64,000 nucleotides of DNA from Eledone cirrhosa. Lineage: Eukaryota. Under the pieces are notes generated by a model. That model saw only the letters and a program-made list of their open reading frames with translations. It did no database searches and was not told the origin of the DNA. Location of the stretch: contig CAXHJY010000081.1 of NCBI GenBank assembly GCA_964016885.1, positions 1 to 64,000 of the forward strand, written 5' to 3'. The position numbers and the translations under genes were made by a program. Positions within the stretch are counted from its first letter, which is position 1. Every line of letters starts with the position of its first letter. Positions 1,886 to 48,183 of this stretch are shown here, piece by piece.

Positions 1886-2220
1886 AAATTTATATATATA
1901 TATATATATATATATAAATTGAAACAAAATGAAAACGAAATTTCATTTCTCACTCTTAGTATGGCACTTACTTAAATGTAAGTATGCATGTATACGTACA
2001 TACATATATGTATACAGACGTACAGTAGCATGCACATATATATATATATACATATATACATACATATGCATACAGGTACACATACATATATGCACGCATC
2101 AGTTTAGCGGCGCTTATTATAACGTCGCTTTGTTCGTTTGTAAACAAACTGAACAGCCTGAATTTATGCCATACGGTGTTAAGGCAACCACGTCACCTTT
2201 TTGTTCAACACTGACACAGG

Positions 2221-2265
2221 AACGATGTACTAGTTTCAAGCTTGTTAGCTATCATCAGCACCGTT
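2221..2265 (-). ncRNA. Type-I hammerhead ribozyme, unit 1
   Basis: aacggtg-CTGATGA-tagct aaca agctt-GAAA-ctag-TA-catcgtt, with a 7-bp stem I. Confidence 0.85.
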
Positions 2266-2690
2266 TACCCATCTGCCAGATAGTTGAACGTTCGAAAGTA
2301 TATACTTTCCTTATGAAAATTAACGGCTGAGCAGCCTAATTTGCATATTGAGTGAGTTAAATCGGTCAGGCATACCGAAAACGATAAATTGAAACAAAAT
2401 GAAAACGAAATTTCATTTCTCACTCTTAGTATGGCACTTACTTAAATGTAAGTATGCATGTATACGTACATACATATATGTATACAGACGTACAGTAGCA
2501 TGCACATATATATATATATACATATATACATACATATGCATACAGGTACACATACATATATGCACGCATCAGTTTAGCGGCGCTTATTATAACGTCGCTT
2601 TGTTCGTTTGTAAACAAACTGAACAGCCTGAATTTATGCCATACGGTGTTAAGGCAACCACGTCACCTTTTTGTTCAACACTGACACAGG

Positions 2691-2735
2691 AACGATGTAC
2701 TAGTTTCAAGCTTATTAGCTATCATCAGCACCGTT
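2691..2735 (-). ncRNA. Type-I hammerhead ribozyme, unit 2
   Basis: As unit 1, with loop II AATA. Confidence 0.85.
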
Positions 2736-3160
2736 TACCCATCTGCCAGATAGTTGAACGTTCGAAAGTATATACTTTCCTTATGAAAATTAACGGCTGA
2801 GCAGCCTAATTTGCATATTGAGTGAGTTAAATCGGTCAGGCATACCGAAAACGATAAATTGAAACAAAATGAAAACGAAATTTCATTTCTCACTCTTAGT
2901 ATGGCACTTACTTAAATGTAAGTATGCATGTATACGTACATACATATATGTATACAGACGTACAGTAGCATGCACATATATATATATATACATATATACA
3001 TACATATGCATACAGGTACACATACATATATGCACGCATCAGTTTAGCGGCGCTTATTATAACGTCGCTTTGTTCGTTTGTAAACAAACTGAACAGCCTG
3101 AATTTATGCCATACGGTGTTAAGGCAACCACGTCACCTTTTTGTTCAACACTGACACAGG

Positions 3161-3205
3161 AACGATGTACTAGTTTCAAGCTTATTAGCTATCATCAGCA
3201 CCGTT
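3161..3205 (-). ncRNA. Type-I hammerhead ribozyme, unit 3
   Basis: As unit 2. Confidence 0.85.
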
Positions 3206-3357
3206 TACCCATCTGCCAGATAGTTGAACGTTCGAAAGTATATACTTTCCTTGTGTACCTGTATGCATATGTATATATATATGTATATATATATATATAT
3301 ATGTGCATGCTACTGTACGTCTGTATACATATATGTATGTACGTATACATGCATACT

Positions 3358-11948: not shown

Positions 11949-11980
<32 letters not shown>

Positions 11981-12177
11981 GGAACCAGTAAGACCCCGAC
12001 AGCTGAGCTCAAGCCGTTTCGACGGCTAATTCTAAGTCGAAACGGCTAATTCTAAGTCGAAACGGCTTGAGCTCAGCTGTCGGGGTCTTACTGGTTCCTA
12101 TTACCCACTCTACTACCTCAAGTATTGAGTACTTTGGTGCGTTATGGTCCACCTGGTTCCTTACCACATTTCCTTCG

Positions 12178-14539: not shown

Positions 14540-15199
14540 ATATATATATATTTATATGTATATATATATATATGTATATATATATGCCAGGTGGTGCTTG
14601 GACATGGCCAATACTAGCCGAGACCTATTAAGTTATATATGTATGTATACGTGTGTATATATATATATATATATGTATGTATATATATATATATATATGT
14701 ATGTATATATACGTGTGTTATTGACGGATGTGAGAAAAAGAACTCAATACCGAAGTAGAGTTTAAATATTCACTTTTATAGCTAGGCAGAGAGCCATGTT
14801 ACTCCGTGCACTCGCATGATCTTCAATATGTTTGTAAGCCTCTGAATATCTCATTCTATCAGAGTCGAACTATATTGTTATATCAGCTATCTTACTGTTT
14901 ATGTATTATGTAATTGCAGACTAATGATGAAACACGAGTTATGTGAATAAACCTTTTATTAAAGTGTAATATCCCCCTCCACTTTCAGATAAATATAACT
15001 GCAGCCGCCATTGATATCTTATATATGGCATGGATGCTATTGTACGCGCCTACATCTTATTCTACAAATTATTCGTGTCATGAACCCCATGGAGAATTAA
15101 ACACGGTAAGACTAACATTTATTGCATTGAAACTTTACAACTGGAATATAAATATATGTATATATAAGAAATCTTGCAAAACAAATTAAAAAACGAAAC

Positions 15200-17100: not shown

Positions 17101-17406
17101 ATAAATATATGCATAAAGAAAGTATATACTTTCGGACGTTCAATCATCTGGGAGGAAGGTATACGTTGCTGACGATAGCTAATAAGCTTGAAACTAGTAC
17201 AGCGTTCCTTTGTCAGTGTTGAACAAACGAGCAACGGTGGTTGCTGGACACTACGGCTTAATACGGAATGTTTGTTTACAAACACACCGATCATTATAAT
17301 AAATGTTCGGTGAATCCATACGTACATATATATATGTGTGCATGTATGTATATATATATACATACTACTGTACGTCTGTATACATATATGTATGTACGTA
17401 TATATA

Positions 17407-18665: not shown

Positions 18666-18714
<49 letters not shown>

Positions 18715-18717
<3 letters not shown>

Positions 18718-18935
18718 AAAAAAGATGAAATCGAAAATGCAACTGGAGTCTTTTTAAGAATATTTATTTGTTTGCTTTACCGGTTTCACAGATCTTATGC
18801 TTTTCAAAAGTAGAATTGAGAATGTTTTTCTCGCATCTGATGGGTAAAGGAAACAAATAAATTTTCTTAAAAAGGGTCCAGTTGCATTTTCGATTTCATC
18901 TTTTTTCCTTATACTTTCACTCGTGTAGTACATCT
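18715..18935. mobile_element. Family F-related fold-back element with a variant HHR at 18775-18810 (-)
   Basis: ctt-TTGAAAA-gca taagatc tgt-GAAA-ccgg-TA-aag. Arms at 18715-18781 and 18843-18912. Confidence 0.7.
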
Positions 18936-19057
18936 CGTTTTTTTTTTTTTTTCATTTAAAAAAACCCCTCATTTTCTTATATATATATATATTTGCTCTA
19001 CGGTCCTTATATATTTGATATATATTTATCGTTATCGAGCCCTCTTTGGATTATTAT

Positions 19058-19099
<42 letters not shown>

Positions 19100-19102
<3 letters not shown>

Positions 19103-19503
19103 CAGAGATATCCACGGTAAGTTGTGGGGTCTAGTCTGCATGAAGAACTCAATGTAATCCAAATGTTGAAAATGTTGTAGGTTAAAATAAATCCCGGCAA
19201 ACAATAAAACATTAAAAGGAAAACAGAGTCATGATATAAGTTAAAACAATGAAATAAAAATTCAAGTCATTAGAAATATACTTCACTGCTTTACGATCGT
19301 TTCTAGGGGATGATAATACATCGTAACCATACTTTTTTATCGATCTATGTAAGGTTAGTTACAAAATAAAGATTATTTTGTAACTAACCTTACATAGACC
19401 GATAACGAAGTATTGTTGCGATGTATTATCATCACCTAGAAACGATCGTAAAGCAGTGAAGTATATTTCTAATGACTTGAATTTTTATTTCATTGTTTTA
19501 ACT

Positions 19504-19508
<5 letters not shown>
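19100..19508 (-). mobile_element. Fold-back element with a 275-bp palindrome (19234-19508) and an HHR 3' half
   Basis: GAAA-cgatcg-TA-aagcag in both arms. No CUGANGA half is present. Confidence 0.7.
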
Positions 19509-19527
<19 letters not shown>

Positions 19528-19534
<7 letters not shown>

Positions 19535-19720
19535 GAGGTTTTTTTTACAAAATTAAAAATAACCGAGTGAAAGTATAAAGAAAAAGAGATGAAATCGAAA
19601 ATGCAACTGGAGTCTTATTTTTTTTAAAAATATATATATTTATTTGGTTCCTTTACCGGTTTTGCAGTTCTTCTGCTTTTCAAAAGGTGAGTTGAGATGG
19701 AAGGTCTGTGGTTTTTCTCA
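19528..19720 (-). mobile_element. Second copy of the 18715 family, with a variant HHR at 19650-19687
   Basis: cctt-TTGAAAA-gcag aagaa ctgc-AAAA-ccgg-TA-aagg (G12 mutated). Confidence 0.65.
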
Positions 19721-20037
19721 CATATATATATATATATATATACTTGGGGAGGGTCATATTGTTGTAATAACATTGCCAGAAATAATAACAGAACGCACTC
19801 ACTGTTTGTTTGGTTTTCGCTTCTGTATCTTTTATATCTCCATAGTTAATTTATTTGGTAACCAACGTTTATCATTGATTGACCGACGGTTAAACATATA
19901 TATTATAGGGTAAAATAACTGTTTCTACCTTAGGCACAAGGCCAGCAATTACCCAGTACATTACTGGTACTTTATATTATAGGGTAAAATAACAGGAGGC
20001 CGCACATGTTGTATTCCTTAAAATTGTATTACTGCAA

Positions 20038-20606: not shown

Positions 20607-20770
20607 AGAAAGTATGATCTGGACTCAGTCCAGAAATAGCCGTCGAAAGGGCTTGAGCTCTGCGGTCGGGGTCATACTTGCTCCTATTACCCACTCTACT
20701 ACCCTAAGTATTGAGTACTCTGGTGAGTTATGGTCCGTCTGGTTCCTTACCACAATTCCTTTGTTATTAC
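20605..20770 (+). mobile_element. Family A element
   Basis: gccgtcGAAAgggcttgagctctgcggTCgggg followed by the family tail. Confidence 0.7.
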
Positions 20771-21825: not shown

Positions 21826-21999
21826 CTTCATTACGTTTATTGATTGGTGACTCGCGTTTCCCTATTGATCAGCTCAAGGTTCGATCTGTATCGATCTGAC
21901 CCGACTCTGGAATTAAAAGCTCGTCGTCCCTCTGGTGTTGTAATGACAGAATGATTCCAAAGTCGGGCCAGATCGAACCTTGAGCTGATCAATCGGGGG

Positions 22000-23036: not shown

Positions 23037-23066
23037 CATATATATATATATAAATACATAATATAT

Positions 23067-23328
23067 AAGATCAAAAGATGGTTAAAGGAGTTCCATGTAT
23101 TTTATTATGCGCATTTCAAAAACAAACATCATCATGCAATAATATTTGTGTTTTCATCAGATAAAACAGGAGAACATGATATGAAGGCTAAAAAACACTT
23201 GTGGATAGTGCAGTCTTAAATCAACATATCTTATATATTATGTATACTCCAGTCCTACAAACTGTAGAGTGCTTCTTATCCGATATCTGCATTGCTTTAT
23301 TGTACTACAATAAAACTCACCTCCTACA
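23067..23328. mobile_element. Family D element with an intact HHR at 23100-23166 (-)
   Basis: ttttat-CTGATGA..GAAA-tgcgca-TA-ataaaa, joined to a plus-strand family tail. Confidence 0.8.
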
Positions 23329-23397
23329 TTATATATAAATACATATATATATATATATATATATACATACATACATACATATATACAGCTAACATTG

Positions 23398-23486
23398 GTA
23401 TATATTCTAAAACTGGAACGCTACAGAGATTAGCATGGCTCTTTGCAAGGAAGACACGCAAATTCTTGAAGCCTTCTATATATTTT
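23398..23486 (+). pseudogene. U6 snRNA pseudogene, 5'-truncated
   Basis: ctaaaactggaacgctACAGAGAttagcatggctctttgcaaggaagacacgcaaattcttgaagcc..tatttt aligns to the conserved U6 sequence with substitutions and a small deletion. Confidence 0.85.
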
Positions 23487-23576
23487 CAATGGCAGAGCCC
23501 TATCACCCCCCCCCCCTCAGTCTGTTGGCAGGAACATATAAAAGGCTAATGTAAATAAATAAATATATATATAAGA

Positions 23577-23936
23577 ATGTATATAGAGGATGATGTGGTA
23601 GAGAGGAAGATGAAAGCATGGGCGGCGTGCCACAGTTTGAGATCGGTGTGGAAGTTGGACCTTCATAAAGACCTGAAGATCTGTCTCTTCGTTGCTCCAG
23701 TGGAGTCTCTGCGGCTGTACGGGTCTGAGACTTGGACACTGACCAAGAAACTCACTCAGATGGTGGTTGGGTGCTACACAAGAATGCTGAGGATGGCTCT
23801 GAACATTAATCAGTATACACTGAGGTTGAAGAACTCAGAGTTGTACGGGAGCCTCCCAAAAGTCAGCTCGAAAGTGACACAGAAGAGATTGAGGTTAGCT
23901 GGACATGCTCACCGACATTCAGAGTTGACACTGCAC
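23577..23936 (+). mobile_element. RTE-clade LINE ORF fragment (post-RT region)
   Basis: AWAACHSLRSVW..LYGSETWTLTKKL..GCYTRMLRMALNI..RLRLAGH. Confidence 0.8.
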
Positions 23937-24436
23937 TGCTCAAATGATGTTGGCATCACCTTTAACCCTTTCGCATTTAAATCGGCCGAATCCTGCCAAA
24001 ATTATCTCACCTCTTTCTAACCGCTGGCTGTTCATACTGATGTTAAGGCATTGTTCTCAAAATAAATAATATCAATATCTCATACATTTGATATTATGTG
24101 AGATAATTATGTAAGATAAAGCCTTTACCTCAAAAATACAAATTTTAAATATAGAGTAATGTAAATGCTAAAGGGTTAAGGTACACCCAAGGCTTGGGCC
24201 TCAAGCTGTCCGCCCACGACAAAAATCTCACTCGGATCTCATAACAATACGGCACAATTATTTCACTTCAATTGACCCCGCTCTCTTTAAAATTACACCA
24301 AAACACATTAAAACAGAAACAGACCTCATAAAGTTCAAGAAGTCTTTGGATAAATAAATTCCTTCAAGAAATCCCGGATAAACCTCTTACACCCGGATAT
24401 GTCTCCGTAAACAATAACTCTCTACTTGAATGGGCC
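23937..24436 (+). mobile_element. CR1/L2-group LINE 3' ORF remnant interrupted by a MITE
   Basis: CSNDVGITF|KVHPRLGP..PALFKITPKHIK..FKKSLDK(fs)FLQEIPDKPLTPGY..NNSLLEW. Confidence 0.65.
23962..24179 (-). mobile_element. TTAA-flanked MITE, same family as 13147
   Basis: TTAA duplication and 14-bp TIR CCCTTT(C/A)GCATTTA. Removing it restores the LINE frame. Confidence 0.85.
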
Positions 24437-26645: not shown

Positions 26646-26912
26646 ACCCTACCCCACATTCCACGTCCCACTCCCAACTATCCAACCTACCTTATCTATC
26701 TACTCTCCCTTTTACCCCCGCACCCCCCCCCCACCTTCTACACTGGAGCTAAGTAAAAAGGTTAGGTACAGTTCAACACTGGGGAGGGAGGGGGAGGTAG
26801 GTCATGTGTGCTGCGTTTCTTAATTTATTTTTTATTTTATCTAAAACTCTTTCTCATGTTCCAAACACCAACTTATCTTAAACGAGAAAGTTTGGGATTT
26901 GAAAATCATATT

Positions 26913-29900
26913 CAGTGTCTGTCGTTAGAAATATGGTAACGAAAGGGTTAAAGTGTTTATTTATCTAAACATAGTTTAGATATTATAAGCAGTGCCTGTC
27001 GTTAGAAATATGGTAACGAAAGGGTTAAAGTGTTTATTTATCTAAACATAGTTTAGATATTATAAGCAGTGTCTGTCGTTAGAAATATGGTAACGAAAGG
27101 GTTAAAGTGTTTATTTATCTAAACATAGTTTAGATATTATAAGCAGTGCCTGTCGTTAGAAATATGGTAACGAAAGGGTTAAAGTGTTTATTTATCTAAA
27201 CATAGTATTGATATTATAAGCAGTGTCTGTCGTTAGAAATATGGTAACGAAAGGGTTAAAGTGTTTATTTATCTAAACATAGTTTTGATATTATAAGCAG
27301 TGCCTGTCGTTAGAAATATGGTAACGAAAGGGTTAAAGTGTTTATTTATCTAAACATAGTTTAGATATTATAAGCAGTGCCTGTCGTTAGAAATATGGTA
27401 ACGAAAGGGTTAAAGTGTTTATTTATCTAAACATAGTTTAGATATTATAAGCAGTGTCTGTCGTTAGAAATATGGTAACGAAAGGGTTAAAGTGTTTATT
27501 TATCTAAACATAGTTTAGATATTATAAGCAGTGCCTGTCGTTAGAAATATGGTAACGAAAGGGTTAAAGTGTTTATTTATCTAAACATAGTATTGATATT
27601 ATAAGCAGTGTCTGTCGTTAGAAATATGGTAACGAAAGGGTTAAAGTGTTTATTTATCTAAACATAGTTTTGATATTATAAGCAGTGTCTGTCGTTAGAA
27701 ATATGGTAACGAAAGGGTTAAAGTGTTTATTTATCTAAACATAGTTTTGATATTATAAGCAGTGCATGTCGTTAGAAATATGGTAACGAAAGGGTTAAAG
27801 TGTTTATTTATATAAACATAGTTTTGATATTATAAGCAGTGTCTGTCGTTAGAAATATGGTAACGAAAGGGTTAAAGTGTTTATTTATCTAAACATAGTT
27901 TTGATATTATAAGCAGTGTCTGTCGTTAGAAATATGGTAACGAAAGGGTTAAAGTGTTTATTTATCTAAACATAGTTTTGATATTATAAGCAGTGCATGT
28001 CGTTAGAAATATGGTAACGAAAGGGTTAAAGTGTTTATTTATATAAACATAGTTTTGATATTATAAGCAGTGTCTGTCGTTAGAAATATGGTAACGAAAG
28101 GGTTAAAGTGTTTATTTATCTAAACATAGTTTTGATATTATAAGCAGTGTCTGTCGTTAGAAATATGGTAACGAAAGGGTTAAAGTGTTTATTTATCTAA
28201 ACATAGTTTTGATATTATAAGCAGTGCCTGTCGTTAGAAATATGGTAACGAAAGGGTTAAAGTGTTTATTTATCTAAACATAGTTTTGATATTATAAGCA
28301 GTGTCTGTCGTTAGAAATATGGTAACGAAAGAGTTAAAGTGTTTATTTATCTAAACATAGTTTTGATATTATAAGCAGTGTCTGTCGTTAGAAATATGGT
28401 AACGAAAGGGTTAAAGTGTTTATTTATCTAAACATAGTTTTGATATTATAAACAGTGTCTGTCGTTAGAAATATGGTAACGAAAGGGTTAAAGTGTTTAT
28501 TTATCTAAACATAGTTTTGATATTATAAGCAGTGCCTGTCGTTAGAAATATGGTAACGAAAGGGTTAAAGTGTTTATTTATATAAACATAGTTTTGATAT
28601 TATAAGCAGTGTCTGTCGTTAGAAATATGGTAACGAAAGGGTTAAAGTGTTTATTTATCTAAACATAGTTTTGATATTATAAGCAGTGTCTGTCGTTAGA
28701 AATATGGTAACGAAAGGGTTAAAGTGTTTATTTATCTAAACATAGTTTTGATATTATAAGCAGTGCCTGTCGTTAGAAATATGGTAACGAAAGGGTTAAA
28801 GTGTTTATTTATCTAAACATAGTTTTGATATTATAAGCAGTGCCTGTCGTTAGAAATATGGTAACGAAAGGGTTAAAGTGTTTTTTTATCTAAACATAGT
28901 TTTGATATTATAAGCAGTGTCTGTCGTTAGAAATATGGTAACGAAAGAGTTAAAGTGTTTATTTATCTAAACATAGTTTTGATATTATAAGCAGTGTCTG
29001 TCGTTAGAAATATGGTAACGAAAGGGTTAAAGTGTTTATTTATCTAAACATAGTTTTGATATTATAAGCAGTGCCTGTCGTTAGAAATATGGTAACGAAA
29101 GGGTTAAAGTGTTTATTTATATAAACATAGTTTTGATATTATAAGCAGTGTCTGTCGTTAGAAATATGGTAACGAAAGGGTTAAAGTGTTTATTTATCTA
29201 AACATAGTTTTGATATTATAAGCAGTGTCTGTCGTTAGAAATATGGTAACGAAAGGGTTAAAGTGTTTATTTATCTAAACATAGTTTTGATATTATAAGC
29301 AGTGCCTGTCGTTAGAAATATGGTAACGAAAGGGTTAAAGTGTTTATCTAAACATAGTTTTGATATTATAAGCAGTGCCTGTCGTTAGAAATATGGTAAC
29401 GAAAGGGTTAAAGTGTTTATTTATCTAAACATAGTTTTGATATTATAAGCAGTGCCTGTCGTTAGAAATATGGTAACGAAAGGGTTAAAGTGTTTATTTA
29501 TCTAAACATAGTTTTGATATTATAAGCAGTGTCTGTCGTTAGAAATATGGTAACGAAAGGGTTAAAGTGTTTATTTATCTAAACATAGTTTTGATATTAT
29601 AAACAGTGTCTGTCGTTAGAAATATGGTAACGAAAGGGTTAAAGTGTTTATTTATCTAAACATAGTTTTGATATTATAAGCAGTGCCTGTCGTTAGAAAT
29701 ATGGTAACGAAAGGGTTAAAGTGTTTATTTATATAAACATAGTTTTGATATTATAAGCAGTGTCTGTCGTTAGAAATATGGTAACGAAAGGGTTAAAGTG
29801 TTTATTTATCTAAACATAGTTTTGATATTATAAGCAGTGTCTGTCGTTAGAAATATGGTAACGAAAGGGTTAAAGTGTTTATTTATCTAAACATAGTTTT

Positions 29901-32480
29901 GATATTATAAGCAGTGCCTGTCGTTAGAAATATGGTAACGAAAGGGTTAAAGTGTTTATTTATCTAAACATAGTTTTGATATTATAAGCAGTGCCTGTCG
30001 TTAGAAATATGGTAACGAAAGGGTTAAAGTGTTTTTTTATCTAAACATAGTTTTGATATTATAAGCAGTGTCTGTCGTTAGAAATATGGTAACGAAAGAG
30101 TTAAAGTGTTTATTTATCTAAACATAGTTTTGATATTATAAGCAGTGTCTGTCGTTAGAAATATGGTAACGAAAGGGTTAAAGTGTTTATTTATCTAAAC
30201 ATAGTTTTGATATTATAAGCAGTGCCTGTCGTTAGAAATATGGTAACGAAAGGGTTAAAGTGTTTATTTATCTAAACATAGTTTTGATATTATAAGCAGT
30301 GTCTGTCGTTAGAAATATGGTAACGAAAGGGTTAAAGTGTTTATTTATCTAAACATAGTTTTGATATTATAAGCAGTGTCTGTCGTTAGAAATATGGTAA
30401 CGAAAGGGTTAAAGTGTTTATTTATCTAAACATAGTTTTGATATTATAAGCAGTGCCTGTCGTTAGAAATATGGTAACGAAAGGGTTAAAGTGTTTATCT
30501 AAACATAGTTTTGATATTATAAGCAGTGCCTGTCGTTAGAAATATGGTAACGAAAGGGTTAAAGTGTTTATTTATCTAAACATAGTTTTGATATTATAAG
30601 CAGTGCCTGTCGTTAGAAATATGGTAACGAAAGGGTTAAAGTGTTTATTTATCTAAACATAGTTTTGATATTATAAGCAGTGTCTGTCGTTAGAAATATG
30701 GTAACGAAAGAGTTAAAGTTGTTATTTAACTAAACATAGTTTTGATATTATAAGCAGTGTCTGTCGTTAGAAATATGGTAACGAAAGAGTTAAAGTGTTT
30801 ATTTATCTAAACATAGTTTTGATATTATAAGCAGTGTCTGTCGTAGGAAATATGGTAACGAAAGGGTTAAAGTGTTTATTTATATAAACATAGTTTTGAT
30901 ATTATAAGCAGTGCCTGTCGTTAGAAATATGGTAACGAAAGGGTTAAAGTGTTTATTTATATAAACATAGTTTTGATATTATAAGCAGTGCCTGTCGTTA
31001 GAAATATGGTAACGAAAGGGTTAAAGTGTTTATTTATCTAAACATAGTTTTGATATTATAAGCAGTGTCTGTCGTTAGAAATATGGTAACGAAAGGGTTA
31101 AAGTGTTTATTTATCTAAACATAGTTTTGATATTATATTCAGTGTCTGTCGTTAGAAATATGGTAACGAAAGGGTTAAAGTGTTTATTTATCTAAACATA
31201 GTTTAGATATTATAAGCAGTGCCTGTCGTTAGAAATATGGTAACGAAAGGGTTAAAGTGTTTATTTATCTAAACATAGTTTTGATATTATAAGCAGTGTC
31301 TGTCGTTAGAAATATGGTAACGAAAGGGTTAAAGTGTTTATTTATCTAAACATAGTTTTGATATTATATTCAGTGTCTGTCGTTAGAAATATGGTAACGA
31401 AAGGGTTAAAGTGTTTATTTATCTAAACATAGTTTTGATATTATAAGCAGTGCCTGTCGTTAGAAATATGGTAACGAAAGGGTTAAAGTGTTTATTTATC
31501 TAAACATAGTTTTGATATTATAAGCAGTGTCTGTCGTTAGAAATATGGTAACGAAAGAGTTAAAGTGTTTATTTATCTAAACATAGTTTTGATATTATAA
31601 GCAGTGTCTGTCGTTAGAAATATGGTAACGAAAGGGTTAAAGTGTTTATTTATCTAAACATAGTTTTGATATTATAAGCAGTGCCTGTCGTTAGAAATAT
31701 GGTAACGAAAGGGTTAAAGTGTTTATTTATCTAAACATAGTTTTGATATTATAAGCAGTGTCTGTCGTTAGAAATATGGTAACGAAAGGGTTAAAGTGTT
31801 TATTTATCTAAACATAGTTTTGATATTATAAGCAGTGCCTGTCGTTAGAAATATGGTAACGAAAGGGTTAAAGTGTTTATTTATCTAAACATAGTTTTGA
31901 TATTATAAGCAGTGCCTGTCGTTAGAAATATGGTAACGAAAGGGTTAAAGTGTTTATTTATCTAAACATAGTTTTGATATTATAAGCAGTGTCTGTCGTT
32001 AGAAATATGGTAACGAAAGGGTTAAAGTGTTTATTTATCTAAACATAGTTTTGATATTATAAGCAGTGTCTGTCGTTAGAAATATGGTAACGAAAGAGTT
32101 AAAGTGTTTATTTATCTAAACATAGTTTTGATATTATAAGCAGTGTCTGTCGTTAGAAATATGGTAACAAAAGGGTTAAAGTGTTTATATTTATCTAAAA
32201 ATTGTCTTAATATTATAAGCAGTGTCTGTCATTAGAAATATGGCAACGAAAGAGTTAAAGTGTTTATATTTATTTAAGTATCATAGACAATGCGTAAAGG
32301 GTTAAAGTGTTTATATTCATCTAAAAAATATTTGTAAACCATAGGCAGTGTCTTTCATTAGAAATATGGTAATTAAGTGGTTCAAGTGTTTATATTTGTC
32401 TAAAAATTATTTAAAAATTCTTGGCAGTGTTTTTCATTAGAAGCATATTAACGAAAGGGTTAAAGTGTTTATATTTATCT
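26913..32480 (+). repeat. 77-bp satellite, about 70 units, homogeneous core with a degenerate right edge
   Basis: gaaagggttaa at 26941, 27018, 27095 and onward. The unit contains a MITE-like terminus GGTAACGAAAGGG-TTAA. Confidence 0.95.
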
Positions 32481-39310: not shown

Positions 39311-39569
39311 TGTGTGTAAGTGGTTTGAGGGATATCTGGTTGCTATTTCTTGCAAGTAAAGGAACCACGTGAACGTTGCTTTAGCGTTAAAGTATTATAT
39401 ATATATATTTTTTCATATATATGAAAAGTTAGGGGCCCCAACGGCTGAGCTCCTGCCGTTTCAACAGCTAATTCCGGGTACTCTGGTGAGTAATGGTCTA
39501 ACAGGTTTTTACTTCATCCATTCTGATATATATATATATATATATATATATGTACGTTATTCCGGGTAG

Positions 39570-39787
39570 AATCGGAGGTAACCACAGTAAGTAAGGTACT
39601 CAATACATAGCAGAGTATAAAAGTTTTAATATAGATGAGATTCTACAGGACTAGAACTGTTTCATTCTTTAGAAATCATCAGGAATCATTCCTGATGATT
39701 TCATTCTTTAGAAATCATCAGGAATCATTCCTGATGATTTCTAAAGAATGAAACAGTTCTAGTCCTGTAGAATCTCATCTATATTAA

Positions 39788-39790
<3 letters not shown>
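39570..39790 (-). mobile_element. Family E fold-back element (HHRs at 39639-39687 minus and 39727-39773 plus)
   Basis: gattc-CTGATGA-tttctaaagaat-GAAA-cag ttctagtc ctg-TA-gaatc, with a 39-bp duplication at the junction. Confidence 0.8.
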
Positions 39791-39827
<37 letters not shown>

Positions 39828-39829
<2 letters not shown>

Positions 39830-40315
39830 CGAGTAAAATTCCTGAGATCCATGGACGAGTTCTCTCCAGCGGTCTCTGTCCCTCATTATCGCTGCCATGT
39901 TCTGCGTCTCCAACAGACCAGTGTCTGTCCTTAGGGCATCGACATACGTTAACCTTGGTCTTCCTCTTCCAGTGTGTCCATGTAGGGGCTCCCACAGGAG
40001 CACTGAGTGCAGTGTCAACTCTGGATGTCGGTGAGCATGTCCAGCTAACCTCAGTCTCCCTCTTCCAGTGTGTCCGTGCAGGAACACTGAGTGCAGTGTC
40101 AACTCTGGATGTCGGTGAGCATGTCCAGCTAATCTCAGTCTCCTGTGTCACTTTTGAGCTGACTTTTGGGAGGCTCCCGTACAGCTCTGAGTTCTTCATC
40201 CTCAGTGTATACTGATTAATGTTCAGAGCCATCCTCAGCCTTCTCGTGTAGCACCCATCCACCATCTGAGTGAGTTTCTTGGTCAGTGTCCAAGTCTCAG
40301 ACCCGTACAGCAGTA
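39828..40315 (-). mobile_element. RTE LINE 3' end, same family as 23577, with an internal duplication
   Basis: LLYGSETWTLTKKL..RLAGHAHRH..GRGRPRLTYVDALRTDTGL..MRDRDRWR, ending in (TA)n. Confidence 0.85.
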
Positions 40316-41276: not shown

Positions 41277-41489
41277 TAACGAAGGAAATGTGGTAAGGAA
41301 CCAGGTGGACCATAAGGCACCAAAGTACTCAATACTTAGGGTAGTAGAGTGGGTAATAGGAACGAGTAGGACCACCCCGACAGCTGAGCTCAAGCCGTTT
41401 CGACGGCTAATTCTGGACTCAGAATTCTGAGTCCAGAATTAGTCGTCGAAACAGCTTGAGCTCAGCCGTCGGGGTCCTACTCGTTCCTA

Positions 41490-41490
<1 letters not shown>
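41277..41490 (-). mobile_element. Family A fold-back element
   Basis: Palindrome centred on ctcagaattctgag. Further fragments at 39425, 40360, 41010-41095 and 42288. Confidence 0.8.
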
Positions 41491-41533
<43 letters not shown>

Positions 41534-42400
41534 CTCCCCTTCTCTCTCTCGCTCTCTAGAAAGAGAGACAGAGAAGCTGACAGATACACAGACAAAAATA
41601 CAAAGAGAGAAATTGAAAAGGGGCAGAAAATCAGAGAGAAAGAGAGAGAGGGGGGGGGGGTAGAACGAGAGAGGGGGAGAGAAAACGAGAAAGAGAGAGA
41701 GAGTGTGTGACAGAGGGGGACAGGTGCCGATAAGAAAAGGGTAGAAGACAGCACACAGGCTGACAACAACAACACCACGACTTTTCTGAGGGTTTCTTTC
41801 TTCCCCCTCGACTCGTTCCCTTTTCGTTGCGCCCTAAATCTCCCTCCTCCATAAACTGACTTAAGCAATGAGGCGAACACAAGGGAGTGAACCCTGTTGT
41901 TACAACACCGTCACCCCTGCTGTTTAACGAGAGGGGGGTGTTTGTGAGAGGGAGGGCTATTCTATCAGCCTGCTATCCCGCCCCCTTTTCTTCTGCCTCT
42001 CTACCCACCCACCTGCCCACCTACCTACATCTTTCTATTGAGCGAGCAGTGCACACGAGGGAGGTAAAAAAACCAAGTACTCTAACGCTACGTTCACGCG
42101 GTCCCCTTACTTGCTAGAAATAGCAGCCAGATAGCCCCCATTTACACACACACACACACACACATATACCCTGGCGTATTAAAAAACAACAACTTCATAT
42201 TGGATAATGTACTTTTAGAGAAGCTGTGTTTTCCGTACACACACATCTTGCATTACACACACACACACACACATATATATATAAATATAGGAACGAGTAG
42301 GACCCCGACGGCTGAGCTCAAGCTGTTTCGACGACTAATATATATATGTGTGTGTGTGTGTGTAATATATATGTGTGTGTGTGTGTGTGTAATATATATA

Positions 42401-42433
<33 letters not shown>

Positions 42434-42566
42434 GTAGGAGGTGAGTTTTATTGTAGCACAATAAAGCAATGCAAATATCGGATAAGTAGCACTCTACAGT
42501 TTGTAGGACTTTGTTTTTGAAATGCGCATAATAAAATACTTGGAACTCTTTTAACCATCTTTTGAT

Positions 42567-42570
<4 letters not shown>
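42434..42570. mobile_element. Family D fragment (inverted tail plus HHR 3' half)
   Basis: Matches 4205-4360 in two orientations. Confidence 0.7.
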
Positions 42571-42622
<52 letters not shown>

Positions 42623-48029: not shown

Positions 48030-48178
48030 ACAAAGAAAGTGTGGTAAGAAACCAGGTAGACCATAACGCACCAGAGTACTCGATACTTAGGGTAGTAGAG
48101 TGGGTAATAGGGAAAGAGTCAGGACCCCGACGGCTGAGCTCCGGCCGTTTCGACAGGTAGATTAGATCCGAACTCGTT

Positions 48179-48183
<5 letters not shown>
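48030..48183 (-). mobile_element. Family A variant element
   Basis: GAAAcggccggagctcagccgTC plus the family tail on the minus strand. Confidence 0.75.

Follow-up and report, generated by a model that had tools for sequence, protein, structure and literature searches.

Between two (TA)n runs of the 64-kb stretch of Eledone cirrhosa DNA that was analysed here (the window) lies an insert of about 410 bp, 19099–19508, which consists of a 135-nt segment followed by a palindrome. The size of the insert follows from the TA runs, which end at 19098 and start at 19504. Its features, with the copies named by whether they bear the tail, are:

19061–19098, no strand: (TA)n run seen in the sequence, left side of the inferred target
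19099–19233, minus strand: tail of 135 nt, seen on a single arm and read as the 3' end of the element RNA
19144–19152, minus strand: TTGAGTTCT, a tail motif also present in sister inserts, at a distance of 54 nt from the end of the tail
19226–19229, minus strand: ACTC, 4 nt past the end point of the tail-less arm
19234–19307, minus strand: outer perfect arm, tail-bearing copy
19292–19303, minus strand: hammerhead 3' half GAAA-CGATCG-TA, tail-bearing copy
19304–19438, no strand: inner hairpin of 66 bp that closes at GAAA, a candidate for inheritance, in the position of helix II
19308–19343 versus 19399–19434: band of six mismatches (pairs 19308/19434, 19324/19418, 19328/19414, 19335/19407, 19336/19406 and 19343/19399)
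19370–19372: AGA loop
19435–19508, plus strand: perfect outer arm of the tail-less copy, whose final 5 nt (TATAT) fuse with the TA run
19439–19450, plus strand: hammerhead 3' half GAAA-CGATCG-TA with a palindromic helix III, tail-less copy
19504–19526, no strand: (TA)n run, right side of the inferred target

The arms of the palindrome, 19234–19369 and 19373–19508, are 136 bp each and align without an indel, giving a palindrome of 275 bases, and base pairing ends immediately beyond 19234 and 19508. An earlier sequence-only reading of this DNA had given 19234..19508 as the extent of the feature, which holds for the palindrome, but the whole feature reaches 135 nt further left. It had placed perfect outer arms at 19234–19307 and 19435–19508, and they lie at exactly these coordinates, with a length of 74 bp where about 73 had been given. 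The arm alignment also bears out the AGA loop and the count of six inner mismatches, which fall at arm positions 75, 91, 95, 102, 103 and 110 from the outside. What does not stand is their spread around the loop: all six are confined to a band of 36 bp (p=0.004), and no mismatch occurs in the innermost 26 bp (p 0.03–0.05 under an even spread over the inner part). The hairpin at 19290–19470 is far beyond chance (z = -24, with 0 of 200 shuffles as extreme), and as DNA the inner hairpin has a high stability, at -53 kcal/mol.

GAAA is found at 19439–19442 on the plus strand and at 19303–19300 on the minus strand. The outermost mismatch is 5 nt 5' of it, so the switch from perfect to mismatched pairing does occur beside the GAAA, as had been claimed. 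Taking GAAA as the boundary, the 70 outer positions contain no mismatch and the 66 inner ones contain 6 (p=0.012), a value weakened by positions 102 and 103 possibly being one event and by the choice of this locus from about 12 palindromes; a clean run of at least 74 anywhere in the arm has p=0.055. The idea that the mismatches are non-random along the arms has modest support, with p=0.008 when the boundary of the sequence-only reading is used in place of GAAA.

Each arm carries the second half of a type I hammerhead ribozyme, that is GAAA, a palindromic helix III and UH, and the cut site is predicted to follow 19450, given a supplied core. The pattern of GAAA, a 6-nt palindrome and TH was found in 216 of 20000 shuffled arms. 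It has 15 other matches in the window: 7 have CTGANGA 11–36 nt upstream, 2 are truncated family arms and 6 are apparently unrelated to ribozymes (the full-motif pattern allowed a spacer of up to 60 nt, and the upstream look covered up to 150 nt). The focal copy is an incomplete ribozyme, lacking the CUGANGA core and helix I. The CTGANGA half had been called absent, and rightly: 19099–19508 holds no exact match on either strand and only four versions with one mismatch, which is about the chance number by a rough estimate. The base preceding GAAA is A and not the conserved C11.1, and a short helix II with G10.1–C11.1 is not present.

Rfam gave 0 matches at the focal locus, no gathering score being reached. 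The best match below threshold, MIR837 (54 of 117 bits), was rejected as driven by pairing; microRNA scores of this kind reflect a generic hairpin. Several ways of completing the ribozyme were tried and rejected as well. An ordinary helix II within one arm is matched by 30% and 14% of shuffles, which fold as well; with the degenerate core GTGATGA at 19435 on the minus strand the helix would fail to close at GAAA; and a type II (permuted) hammerhead via CTAATGA at 19469 has A at G5, a helix I of 3 bp and an unpaired helix II.

The window was compared with itself, which gave 20 hairpin rows. Seven of low complexity were dropped, leaving the focal insert and 12 others, and 21860–21997, a spaced 29-bp repeat, was left out, leaving 11 sisters. 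All 11 follow one plan: one arm stops at a TA run or close to it, and the other continues into a tail (shortened in 14038, and merging into other repeats in 22045). The tail-less arms end at one site per family, solo copies included. Ten of the 11 have the hammerhead-like GAAA half, 18711 being without it. The core is kept in both arms of 5 of the 11, which indicates that these turned 5' of the core, through imperfect helices II.

Family B (1372, 11978, 14038, 20606, 22204, 39425, 40379, 41033, 41356, 44036 and 48010) has the GAAA half with a 6-bp helix III, and is the only other family with GAAA alone. All 17 arms lack a core in the 150 nt upstream, a count that includes 42287–42339, which is not independent, as it shares two variants and flank with the tail-less arm of 41356–41490 and is either a local inverted duplicate or an assembly overlap. 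In all copies the family-like sequence stops at most about 28 nt 5' of GAAA, and none has CTGANGA. This shared stop point hints that the RNA 5' end, or a stop, lies at a fixed place. The junctions of family B differ between near-identical copies (22204, 41356), which argues that they were made anew and not inherited.

The sisters also show which arm runs further at the junction. The helix I strand is 5–8 bp in the tail-less arm and 0–4 bp in the tail-bearing arm of 4046, 4416, 4683 and 22045. For 18711, the match to an uninverted copy extends about 40 nt further in the tail-less arm, and 11978 has the same polarity. Two sisters, 22204 and 44036, have the opposite polarity, and 14038, 41356 and 39622 are uninformative. 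A simple snap-back of the tail-bearing cDNA predicts extra 5' sequence on the tail-bearing arm, so 6 of the 8 informative sisters oppose it.

Four inserts (1372–1513, 42432–42575, 23060–23330 and 39425–39530) have the ribozyme-side arm inverted relative to the tail, with duplication slight or absent. In 1372, family positions 4–63 are inverted and 64–140 are direct, with the border at 65; the overlap in 23060 is about 12–18 nt, and 39425 is a diverged case. These non-duplicated inversions are broken at the border of arm and tail and resemble twin priming. In L1 twin priming, priming by the second target strand gives inversions without duplication, and no fixed element site is known for the second priming. 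Deletion from a palindrome could mimic the non-duplicated inversions, and would need to strike repeatedly at the border. Short fold-backs with loops of 1–3 nt are also seen in the window outside the focal insert, among them 7-nt returns with loops of 2–3 nt at 48165–48181 and 20618–20635.

Two side observations concern these inserts. The elements at 18711–18978 and 19527–19721 belong to another TA-flanked family, which has a tail and no recognisable hammerhead core; one is palindromic, and the other is uninverted and adjoins the focal insert. The palindrome centres of 39622–39791 and 11978–12101 contain tandem pieces of 39 and 20 nt, which suggests repeated template slips at the junction.

The 135-nt segment of the focal insert is very likely the tail of the element, because ACTC and TTGAGTTCT are placed in it as in the sister tails. 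The distance of the motif from the tail end is 54 nt in the focal insert, 54 in family B and 50–52 in family A. All 11 tails examined have ACTC at an offset of -1 to +10 from where the tail-less arm ends, and pairing between ACTC and the GAGT of the tail motif is predicted. The pattern TNGAGTDCY, which was defined after seeing the focal tail and widened to fit it, is matched by 9 of 11 tails (22045 and 18711 do not match). It occurs 18 times in the window, with 14 of the 17 non-focal occurrences inside tails of such inserts, and ACTC and TNGAGTDCY are found together in 5 of 20000 shuffles. An independent TTGAGTTCT with ACTC upstream is found at 14747. The tails with ACTC...TNGAGTDCY are at:

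1241, 1459, 4297, 4563, 4999, 12125, 20711 and 22357
23265, 39603, 41332, 42496, 44163 and 48083

Since ACTC...TNGAGTDCY is common to the tails of several otherwise dissimilar families, it is a candidate recognition or initiation element. The focal tail is 135 nt long versus 64–89 nt for the complete sister tails measured. Further, unassigned matches to TNGAGTDCY lie at 42084 and 35598.

Because its tail carries the motif of the neighbouring hammerhead-bearing inserts, the focal insert is most likely a head-to-head pair of Penelope-like element (PLE) ends with a tail; the assignment to the PLE class, taken alone, is close to secure. The insert has inverted, 5'-truncated, head-to-head copies of the end, a tail limited to one copy and an AT-rich (TA)n target with TA runs on both sides, the last being a weak criterion alone, as TA runs are common across the window. 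There is no long ORF on the sense strand of the insert and no reverse transcriptase ORF linked to it, so PLE membership is inferred from non-coding anatomy, and six unrelated ORFs of the window gave no Pfam hit. With no ORF and half a ribozyme, the insert is predicted to be a dead relic. A head-to-head end pair with a tail is an already described PLE structure, ordinary for PLE-rich genomes. PLE ends can contain introns. On the plus strand, 19349–19397 is a 49-nt GT...AG stretch over the hairpin apex, with a donor-like GTAAGG and a branch-like CTAAC, and it may be a by-product of the symmetry.

No dispersed copies of the focal family were found within the window. Searching it by blastn with the arm and the tail gave short chance matches only, the tail (19099–19233) has no homologue elsewhere in it at E<=0.05, and an 18-nt motif allowed up to 3 mismatches matches the two focal arms alone. 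A 23-nt exact scan of a bacterial and archaeal collection gave 0 matches, as expected for an animal repeat, and a 12-nt motif gave 0 matches in the text of publications. Motifs of the focal and four sister families gave 0 matches in the supplement of PMC8557442, where a match may be masked by line breaks or cut runs. A 77-bp tandem satellite occupies about 26900–32400 of the window, and a match of 10–14 nt between it and the insert was taken as chance.

Head-to-head inverted copies of PLE ends, a one-sided tail and junction palindromes are described in PMC3846280, PMC8557442 and the review PMC6765202. The pLTRs of Pen2a and Pen3a, endonuclease-bearing PLEs of Adineta vaga, are like the focal insert in the head-to-head repeat, the one-copy tail and the junction palindrome (PMC3846280). 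Unlike them, the focal insert is ORF-less, with a tail of 135 nt versus about 31, a junction 66 nt 5' of GAAA and an imperfect band. The Hydra, Neptune and Naiad clades have the same (TA)n target and adjacent inverted 5'-truncated copies, and in Hydra-clade families the ribozyme is about 100–200 nt from the 3' end (PMC8557442). An "HHR_half_core" is reported there in 8 Naiads; that half-core is the first half, whereas the focal copy has the second half only. The same paper gives helices II of about 3–9 bp and half-core spacers of 35–50 nt, versus the 135 nt needed in the focal insert, and calls the mechanism of PLE inverted-end formation undefined.

The minimal type I hammerheads of PLEs in PMC4209133 have the same GAAA, palindromic helix III and UH, and occur as motif pairs on opposite strands, 100–700 bp apart. 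The focal copy differs from them in having no CUGANGA and no 5' strand of helix I, and A in place of C at 11.1; helix II is 7–8 bp in those hammerheads, and the focal insert offers only the 66-bp hairpin. PAc (Poseidon, Anolis) cuts and extends both strands in vitro, with two start sites bounding the tail (PMC11167929). An AT-rich target and start sites that would bound the tail are likenesses to the focal insert, although the PAc tail is 30–40 nt versus 135 nt. A 2013 proposal had PLE inverted junctions arise by self-priming, with an antisense template (PMC3846280), and for R2-protein insertions one of the junction types reported is cDNA snap-back, in which, as in the scheme suggested below, the cDNA 3' end primes on cDNA before target joining (PMC11371274). 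R2 and L1 are other retroelement classes, with no ribozyme hairpin involved in the accessible accounts.

The polarity of the sisters, the non-duplicated inversions and the single end site of the tail-less arms in each family point to priming from both target ends, which has an in vitro parallel in PAc. From the sisters, the simplest model we infer for this one window is priming by two ends at two sites, with either cDNA folding back to close the gap. At the focal locus the element-encoded endonuclease would cut (TA)n. One target end would prime at the far end of the tail, and the other just 5' of ACTC, where TATAT matches the target. One cDNA would pass GAAA, round the 66-bp imperfect hairpin and keep the six mismatches. 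Its 3' end would then pair back at the hairpin base and extend on the cDNA, which would yield the perfect outer arm, and sequence further 5' would be lost, including CTGANGA if the hairpin is helix II. The sense copy would finally pair with or join the other target end. Fold-back by either cDNA would be compatible with the symmetric junction. A broader form of this scheme is doubtful: that head-to-head PLE ends arise on sense RNA by two-end priming at two fixed sites, which bracket a conserved ACTC...GAGT tail hairpin, followed by snap-back of either cDNA, that failed snap-back gives a non-duplicated inversion, and that the focal locus is a rare record of a parent element in which fold-back was triggered by a hammerhead helix II of 66 bp.

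An inherited hairpin followed by cDNA snap-back is the best single reading of the focal locus, held tentatively and at somewhat less than an even chance; an inherited hairpin by any route, either fold-back or pairing of two cDNAs, seems about as probable as its opposite, on a rough weighing. The boundary of the mismatches coincides with where helix II would close. In the sister palindromes (n=10, tallied by hand, with 18711 omitted because it has no anchor), 15 of 449 outer and 7 of 225 inner positions are mismatched (p=1.0); heavier mutation is thus no general feature of hairpin centres. Since no helix II closing at GAAA can be folded from a single arm, the role could fall only to the complete hairpin. 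It would require a core spacer of 135 nt versus 11–36 nt in the 7 clearest full motifs of the window, and a 66-bp helix II is without parallel among the window motifs or in the accessible text of the comparison papers. G-U pairs make up 2 of the 6 mismatches on the plus RNA and 1 of 6 on the minus RNA, and transitions make up the same share as in sister arms (3 of 6 versus 13 of 26), which gives no sign of selection for pairing. An imperfect inherited centre was seen in none of the 11 sisters analysed, and no hidden duplicate of the inner 66 nt turned up when the remainder of the insert was searched (best local score 15).

The sequence-only reading had gone further and offered snap-back at stem II as a general mechanism of PLE 5' inversions. 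The sisters speak against this. In half of the ribozyme-bearing ones the turn lies 5' of a core that is still intact, most informative cases have the longer reach in the tail-less arm, and of the four inserts inverted without arm duplication several cannot derive from a self-copying cDNA.

Two accounts of the mismatches dispense with an inherited hairpin, and both are unlikely, to an equal degree. The arms of a PLE end pair may have been identical at birth, with a new junction at AGA set by an RNA 5' end or a reverse transcriptase stop, and the six differences would have come later by chance or as a local mutation patch. The sisters look like this, with 0 to 8 differences per pair and copy-specific centres, and the mismatch spectrum is equal to that of sister arms; the coreless GAAA-only arms of family B fit as well, and a 36-bp band flanked by perfect sequence suits a patch as well as an old stem. 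The uneven spread under the GAAA boundary, the sisters' lack of an inner excess and a band edge so near GAAA nevertheless count against later mutation. In the other account, an older palindrome had mismatches throughout, and its outer arms were later homogenised by a replication template switch (quasi-palindrome correction) or by retrotransposition of an old palindromic copy, the inner part not being helix II. Such a history would yield arms perfect outside and imperfect inside without an oversized helix II; the stability of the inner hairpin as DNA favours it, and known template switches reportedly extend identity between imperfect arms. An arbitrary switch point would be expected, yet the switch is beside GAAA (a coincidence of roughly 1 in 10, by estimate), and no sister shows the pattern.

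The hairpin could also have been inherited without any fold-back, if two cDNAs, one per target end, paired via the self-complementary hairpin copy and were filled in. The sequence outcome would be that of inherited hairpin plus snap-back, the non-duplicated inversions show that both ends can prime, and the PAc protein is a predicted dimer (PMC11167929). This is nonetheless improbable, as the arms of one palindrome share subfamily variants (11978, 14038), which is easiest by copying, and 7-nt fold-backs exist. Still further down stands self-priming on an antisense transcript, as proposed for the head-to-head Penelope junctions of Adineta vaga (PMC3846280). It permits more 5' sequence on the tail-less arm, but alone it leaves unexplained the non-duplicated inversions at the border of arm and tail and the two sense-RNA start sites reported in vitro (PMC11167929). 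Just as improbable is the insertion at TA of a DNA element of foldback or MITE type, with terminal repeats of 74 bp and no relation to ribozymes. TA can be read on both sides, at 19235–19236 and 19506–19507, and the absence of an Rfam hammerhead would fit; against it are the ribozyme half-motif, the one-sided tail with a shared motif at the family B distance, the architecture of the sisters, and a left flank that is an element-like tail and not host DNA. No copy with the same termini was found in the window.

If the mismatches of the focal palindrome were inherited, as the reading by inherited hairpin and snap-back has it, the locus marks the point of the template switch to within a few bases. 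The sister inserts offer a testable alternative of two primed ends plus fold-back, together with a candidate cis-element in the tail. A two-ended model with a conserved tail motif could be the novelty here; by title and abstract opening, no two-ended or twin-priming model for PLE inversions was found, in a literature set thin in subscription papers.

Other features of the window lie away from the focal insert. The repeats of the window resemble those of octopuses. Fragments at 23559–24020 and 39779–40147, without a Pfam hit, resemble the end of an RTE-type reverse transcriptase. A U6 snRNA-like sequence with deletions at 23383–23485 (61 bits) is a probable pseudogene. At about 1920–3330 on the minus strand there is a retrozyme-like array, made of three units of 470 bp in tandem; every unit holds a complete minimal hammerhead (2258, 2728 and 3198), and a related single hammerhead motif is found at 17169.
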